From the NCBI RefSeq assembly GCF_036507355.1, contig NZ_AP027877.1: a stretch of 64,000 bases of DNA; one strand, written 5' to 3'. Position numbers and translations under genes: made by a program. The notes beneath the pieces are model-generated. The model was not told the origin of the DNA, searched no databases, and worked only from the letters and a program-made list of their open reading frames with translations. Below are positions 17,574 through 17,641 of the stretch, piece after piece. Within the stretch, counting starts at the first letter, position 1, and each line of letters starts with the position of its first letter. Source of the DNA: Escherichia coli (lineage in GTDB: Bacteria; Pseudomonadota; Gammaproteobacteria; Enterobacterales; Enterobacteriaceae).

Positions 17574-17641
17574 CGAGGGGAGCGCATTTGGCGTAGCCTG
17601 GGCGCTATTGCCTAATGCGATGCTGGCGCCTTTTTTCCGGC

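Follow-up and report, generated by a model that had tools for sequence, protein, structure and literature searches.

REP elements of E. coli are units of about 36 nt with a head (GCC..ATGCG) and a tail (..TCCGGCCTAC) that terminates in CTAC, located at the 3' ends of convergent genes. The short spacer described here, which separates a ratA-like gene remnant from xseA, has the same head, tail, length and position; further copies occur in the window (the whole stretch of 64,000 nt of E. coli DNA that was analysed) at 16092-16154, 35994-36043, 56363 and 61020-61085, and at the orthologous position other genomes have canonical REPs or an inverted doublet that is still intact. It differs from other REPs in that its palindrome is broken by 5 substitutions, with a hairpin that is about half as stable, and in that its tail overlaps the xseA stop codon and thus is not strictly extragenic. 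Compared to BIME/REPIN, the partner REP in the spacer is reduced to a head remnant of about 14 nt.

The spacer lies at one end of a gene islet for which there is also a described counterpart. The ila cluster (sinH, sinI, ratA) is probably derived from the Salmonella CS54 island and corresponds to genomic region 17, "xseA..yfgJ" (PMC12928451; PMC3591323). With CS54 and with ila of ExPEC E. coli, the islet in the window shares the yfgJ and xseA flanks and the gene order sinH, sinI, RatA-like, while it differs from both in that its ratA lacks 5.15 kb including the start codon; in Salmonella, ratB and shdA are also present beside xseA (PMC3591323). The locus is already known as variable, and the feature itself is an ordinary one. 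Of several possible explanations for the spacer, we favour as very probable that it is a neutral relic of a REP doublet within the sinH-sinI-ratA (ila, CS54-like) islet haplotype.

The features to which we refer are as follows, in window coordinates.

12393-12608: yfgJ
12609-17641, no strand assigned: islet relative to K-12 (sinH, sinI, ratA remnant and spacer), between yfgJ and xseA
12818-14998: sinH, inverse autotransporter (IAT_beta)
15054-16019: sinI, an ORF of 321 aa
16191-17573, + strand: ORF with TGA at 17571-17573
16246-17573, + strand: remnant of a ratA-like "adhesion domain-containing protein" (InvE_AD, BIg21), C-terminal ~442 codons
17574-17641, no strand assigned: spacer, a decayed REP doublet (BIME/REPIN-like relic)
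17580-17593, - strand: inverted REP head remnant, GAGCGCATTTGGCG, aligned to CAGCGCATCCGGCA of the intact Pseudocitrobacter doublet
17594-17609, no strand assigned: linker of the two REP units, TAGCCTGGGCGCTATT, from the alignment of spacers
17610-17645, + strand: full REP, decayed, GCCtaATGCGATGCTGGCGCCTtTTtTCCGGCCTAC, 5 substitutions away from the canonical allele of CFT073
17600-17636, + strand: alternative hairpin (17600-17631) with T6 at 17631-17636, a marginal signal resembling an intrinsic terminator, limited to + strand transcripts
17642-17644, - strand: xseA stop TAG, formed by the CTA within the REP tail GGCCTAC
17642-17818, - strand: islet-linked divergent 3' end of xseA, from identity bins against K-12
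17642-19018, - strand: xseA, exonuclease VII large subunit, 458 aa (Exonuc_VII_L, E 2e-115)
35994-36043, 56363-56376 and 61020-61085: canonical REPs used as internal references (two inverted pairs and one single copy)

Relation of the spacer to REP elements

The 68 bp gap at 17574-17641 extends from the TGA of the ratA-like remnant (+) to the xseA stop (-) and has a GC content of 61.8%, compared to 51.9% for the window. A preliminary description had reported a GC-rich spacer of this length containing REP-like fragments, and we agree with it on the position (the + strand ORF ends at 17573 and the - strand ORF of xseA occupies 17642-19018) and on the motifs that it quoted, which are found as GCCTAATGCG at 17610-17619 and TTTTTCCGGCCTAC at 17632-17645. 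E. coli strain 33F4 carries the identical allele, and those of A30, O145:H28 RM13514 and Escherichia sp. E1V33 depart from it by 1 nt.

Measured against the REP tail CTTATCCGGCCTAC, which includes the terminal CTAC/GTAG, TTTTTCCGGCCTAC matches at 12/14 positions with CTAC intact, and the head GCCGGATGCG is matched at 8/10, so that head and tail occur at the spacing of ~35-40 nt that defines a REP. The tail match by itself is not significant, as chance alone would give 3.3 of them across the window when up to 3 mismatches are allowed, and the identification as a REP therefore rests on orthology: CFT073 and 13P477T carry a canonical REP, ATTGCCGGATGCGATGCTGGCGCCTCTTATCCGGTCTAC, at the orthologous position, and this is almost identical to genuine REPs at other places in the window, such as that at 36030. 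Compared to the CFT073 element, the window allele differs at 5 of 40 positions (35/40 match), the changes being GG->TA in the head, C->T and A->T in the tail arm, and T->C. Dispersed copies are also present, with 9 tail matches in the 64 kb against the 3.3 expected (0/100 shuffles reached 9), and 5 of the 9 are clear REPs once aligned. No match in the window was obtained with a full-length REP pattern of 36 nt allowing 3 mismatches, but this pattern is too strict since the loop lengths of real REPs vary. When 16000-19200 was scanned against Rfam (E <= 1), the spacer produced no match, including to the REP-derived naRNA4.

The element is located between two convergent stop codons, with its last 4 nt overlapping the xseA stop, and so its tail extends 4 nt beyond 17641, past the end that had been assigned to the spacer. 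The REP-derived portion also extends in the other direction. In the 5' half, GAGCGCATTTGGCG at 17580-17593 can be aligned column by column to the inverted head CAGCGCATCCGGCA of a doublet found in a Pseudocitrobacter MAG, and for this reason the whole spacer, as judged from alignment, is REP-derived and consists of an inverted head, a linker and a full REP. What had been described as REP-like fragments is therefore REP-like throughout, and the best label is that of a degenerate REP, an ordinary member of a well-known repeat family.

The Pseudocitrobacter locus (L022) represents the best-preserved form, GGATAAGCGCAGCGCATCCGGCA - taggccgggcgccgg - TGCCGGATGCGATGCTGGCGCATCTTATCCGGCCTA (inverted REP, linker, forward REP), and this inverted doublet folds at -42.9 kcal/mol. 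Other lineages have lost different parts. The REP tail has been removed by a 9-bp deletion in the SW070910 type, and in E. albertii only ATTGCCGGA is left. Other lineages have thus decayed independently, which speaks against constraint.

Linkage to the islet and the ratA remnant

In K-12, O157, strain 139 and DEC9B, the ends of yfgJ and xseA overlap by 4 bp, leaving no spacer. The preliminary description had named an identical spacer at xseA in genomes that lack the islet as the finding that would speak against a boundary marker; this is not the case. Since islet-free E. coli genomes are without any spacer, the comparison identifies the spacer as DNA that is linked to the islet. The abundance of each junction type was determined in 5426 complete E. 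coli genomes, using for the islet-free type a contiguous match to a 401-nt K-12 query across the yfgJ/xseA junction; counts of the junction types were derived from BLAST coverage bands.

Islet-free junction, yfgJ overlapping xseA: 3668/5426 genomes
REP-type spacer, all alleles: about 930-976 of 5426 genomes
Window allele (>=99% identity), part of the REP type: 49/5426 genomes
53-bp hairpin spacer: 760/5426 genomes

Within the REP type there is a 59-bp allele in which a 9-bp deletion took the REP tail, and here the stop is the TTA of CTTAT.

A motif scan with one genome per species covered 76 loci, nearly all from Enterobacteriaceae. Among these species representatives, REP motifs beside the xseA stop were restricted to loci with a ratA-like neighbour; in Pluralibacter and Kluyvera ascorbata, which are islet-free, the REP motifs are unrelated and occur at other offsets. 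As yfgJ abuts or overlaps xseA in other Enterobacteriaceae as well (Citrobacter, Enterobacter, Silvania, Yokenella, Klebsiella), the overlap is probably ancestral. Across the Enterobacteriaceae, genes also seem to have been gained repeatedly at the yfgJ/xseA junction, because about 1.44 kb of other DNA is found between the two genes in many Enterobacter, Lelliottia, Trabulsiella and related species (L027, L031, L034, L040, L041, L046, L062, L065, L070, L072-L074 and L086).

The islet itself contains counterparts of the RefSeq CFT073 genes found between yfgJ and xseA, which encode SinH, a SinI-family protein and an adhesion domain-containing protein of 2683 aa. The last of these is represented in the window by a pseudogene remnant. 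Strain A30 has 5153 bp of the ratA-like gene, including the start codon, that are absent from the window, so that the ORF had been described correctly as truncated, and it is only by chance that the ORF starts with the TTG at 16191. The deletion, which removed the promoter-proximal region and about 1700 codons, is delimited by the correspondence of window 16156-16248 to L001 1-93 and of window 16246-19100 to L001 5247-8101, with a TTA microhomology at the junction (16246-16248). This junction was found in 0/5426 complete E. coli genomes. The results thus clarify the annotation of a common variable E. coli locus, the ORF adjacent to the spacer being a ratA pseudogene remnant; their importance in this respect is small.

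Folding of the spacer and its possible functions

The window allele has lost the structure that is kept by its relatives, and it is the five substitutions that destroyed the REP stem. Folding energies (MFE, + strand / - strand) and z-scores relative to shuffled sequences were as follows.

REP alone, window: MFE -7.9 / -8.1 kcal/mol, without the canonical stem
REP alone, CFT073: MFE -15.4 / -13.9 kcal/mol
Other REPs in the window: MFE -15 to -21 kcal/mol
Window spacer with flanks: z +0.80 / -0.57
CFT073 spacer: z -3.93 (+ strand)
SW070910 spacer: z -2.47 / -3.41
53-bp allele: z -2.87 / -3.95

A stable REP stem-loop is thus absent from the window allele on both strands, and because the canonical stem is lost we class the element as a decayed and not as an intact REP. 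The long hairpin of BIME/REPIN is likewise missing in the window, where the left unit is down to GAGCGCATTTGGCG (z +0.80); it is present in the Pseudocitrobacter spacer, and partly in those of CFT073 and SW070910 (z -3.9 and -2.5).

In the better-preserved alleles (CFT073-type E. coli, Pseudocitrobacter), an inverted head is joined by a short linker to a full REP, and the pair folds into stable stem-loops directly after the stops of the convergent genes ratA and xseA, with the xseA stop codon coming from the tail of the full REP. In the window haplotype, point substitutions have abolished the REP stem as well as the long hairpin between the two REPs. Given the lost structure, we infer that the spacer probably has no function.

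Several functional explanations deserve consideration. One of these, which we regard as tentative and rather unlikely, is that the spacer acts as a weak terminator for + strand transcripts only, shielding xseA from antisense read-through out of sinH-sinI and the ratA remnant, and that the decay substitutions were selected for this reason. As in intrinsic terminators between convergent genes, there is a GC-rich hairpin with T6, starting 27 nt after the stop on the + strand. The hairpin at 17600-17631 (GGGCGCUAUUGC/cuaau/GCGAU/gcu/GGCGCCU) has a folding energy of -14.3 kcal/mol, and in a custom hairpin-plus-T-tail scan of every T-rich tail in the window it ranked 29 among 373 candidate sites (top 8%), amid sites at real gene ends. 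The same columns of the CFT073 allele reach only -7.6 kcal/mol and have a poor U-tract, and the T run grows stepwise across alleles, from CTTATCC via CTTTTCC to TTTTTCC (A->T, C->T), which could be due to selection and not to drift. However, the alleles are just two substitutions apart, which would fit drift as well, and the haplotype is rare (49/5426 genomes). The stem is interrupted by a 3-nt bulge, and its fold is no better than those of shuffled sequences (local z -1.0; 32/200 shuffles fold as well). A consensus terminator scan of 16000-19300 found 0 sites, which is weak evidence as the same scanner missed the clean 12-bp hairpin with T6 of the 53-bp allele (L003:2974-3008), probably because of its loop-length limit. 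At best, there is a weak signal in one direction that serves a gene without a start codon. The hairpin and T6, themselves partly a product of the decay substitutions, might still weakly terminate + strand read-through from sinH-sinI into xseA.

A second group of possibilities concerns xseA and its translation. In every islet-linked allele, the xseA stop is provided by the REP or hairpin sequence: TAG in GGCCTAC (window 17642-17644), TAA in CTTAT after the 9-bp deletion (L088:1639-1700), and TGA in TATCAGGC (L003:2945-3000). The encoded XseA tails are KKAANT or KKTSNP (TAG), KKAANP (TAA) and KKA (TGA). Intact REPs protect upstream mRNA from 3' exonucleases. Liang, Rudd and Deutscher (Mol Cell 2015; reference 68 in the list of PMC6815119) have reportedly observed that ribosomes terminating at a stop codon are stalled by a REP hairpin that begins at most 15 nt away, and that the upstream gene is then expressed less. 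For the intact alleles, in which the xseA stop lies inside the REP, both the mRNA-stabilising and the translation-lowering role are plausible; the window allele, having lost its stem, is probably subject to neither. That a REP-derived sequence was absorbed into the end of a housekeeping gene, with an intact REP at the stop tuning XseA expression through ribosome stalling and the window allele having escaped by decay, is an idea that we consider unlikely. It is improbable, too, that the REP acts on xseA translation via ribosome stalling at the stop. The distance is appropriate, with the xseA stop lying inside the REP tail in every islet-type allele, and on the - strand the intact alleles have a REP stem that is stable (CFT073, -13.9 kcal/mol), but in the window the - strand stem is gone (-8.1 kcal/mol, no canonical pairing), so at most the effect has been lost here. 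Whether a REP on the xseA stop modulates exonuclease VII levels in ExPEC strains with an intact REP is a mildly interesting question.

It is very unlikely that the spacer is a functional bidirectional intrinsic terminator for both the islet gene and xseA; the preliminary description had suggested that its REP-like fragments may act as a convergent terminator. The spacer is GC-rich and situated between two convergent stops, and in addition to the + strand hairpin of -14.3 kcal/mol followed by T6, this idea could draw upon the 53-bp allele, which does have a clean 12-bp hairpin with A and T runs at its sides. In the window, however, the - strand has A6 before the hairpin and CAGGCUACG after it, and hence no U-tract, unlike intrinsic terminators between convergent genes. 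For this strand, z-scores of -0.57 and +1.03 were obtained, and neither the consensus nor the T-tail scan identified a hairpin-then-U-tract candidate for the xseA mRNA near the spacer. The + strand gene, for its part, is without its promoter-proximal 5.1 kb and its start codon. The convergent terminator is thus not borne out, and RNA folding, which had been proposed as a check, gave for the window spacer a structure no better than that of shuffled sequence (z +0.80 / -0.57), with the REP stem broken and a + strand signal that is only marginal. The xseA transcripts would accordingly lack an intrinsic terminator at this position and probably end by Rho or further downstream.

Divergence of the flanking genes

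Comparison with K-12 places the edge of the divergent region inside xseA. Along this gene, the identity of the window to K-12 is 0.90-1.00 to about nt 1200, after which the final three bins of 60 nt have values of 0.70, 0.65 and 0.44, while BLAST homology to K-12 starts only at window position 17724. By this measure the homology break is inside xseA, about 80-180 bp from its stop, and not at the spacer. On the opposite side of the islet, yfgJ (12393-12608) is 82% identical to that of islet-free E. coli. For the final ~177 nt of xseA the identity is 44-70%, compared to 95-98% for the rest of xseA and for der/bamB.

The K-12 XseA tail agrees with the family consensus DGWVESEV. The islet-type XseA C-terminus is common to Pseudocitrobacter, E. 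albertii and other Escherichia species, and because it is shared by Pseudocitrobacter and E. albertii, this distribution suggests that the islet moves together with its flanks. Since the divergence spans the end of xseA as well as yfgJ, and the islet ends are without a direct repeat, the sequences indicate that the haplotype has been swapped by homologous recombination in the flanking genes, and not by site-specific insertion at the spacer. The proposal that the spacer marks the distal boundary of the islet holds in so far as the spacer is linked to the islet; the break itself lies within xseA, and the spacer is not an insertion site. An islet haplotype that reaches into the 3' end of xseA is of use for ila/CS54-like typing and for xseA-based recombination or phylogenetic work.

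It is extremely unlikely that the spacer is an integration scar or an att-like site of islet insertion: it is missing from islet-free genomes and is situated at the distal islet end, and some insertion sequences are known to target REPs, but no direct repeat of at least 8 bp is common to both islet ends, divergence from K-12 reaches 80-180 bp into xseA and across yfgJ, and the islet, with sinH, sinI and ratA as its only genes, is without an integrase or tRNA. The sole match between the two ends is a 9-bp inverted one, TCACTGGAA (12611 vs 17565), which we rejected as ~0.3 such matches are expected by chance and as it is not kept in CFT073.

A BIME consisting of two inverted canonical REPs is located at 16092-16154, between sinI and the former start of ratA. 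Its linker (16098-16140, - strand) matches Rfam ES036 (CssrF sRNA) with 52.4 bits, compared to a gathering score of 37.6, and its flanks show weak, partial matches to naRNA4. Relative to CFT073, this BIME resembles an insertion of ~170 bp in the sinI terminator hairpin, with the hairpin part GCAAGGGAATGGTG being duplicated.
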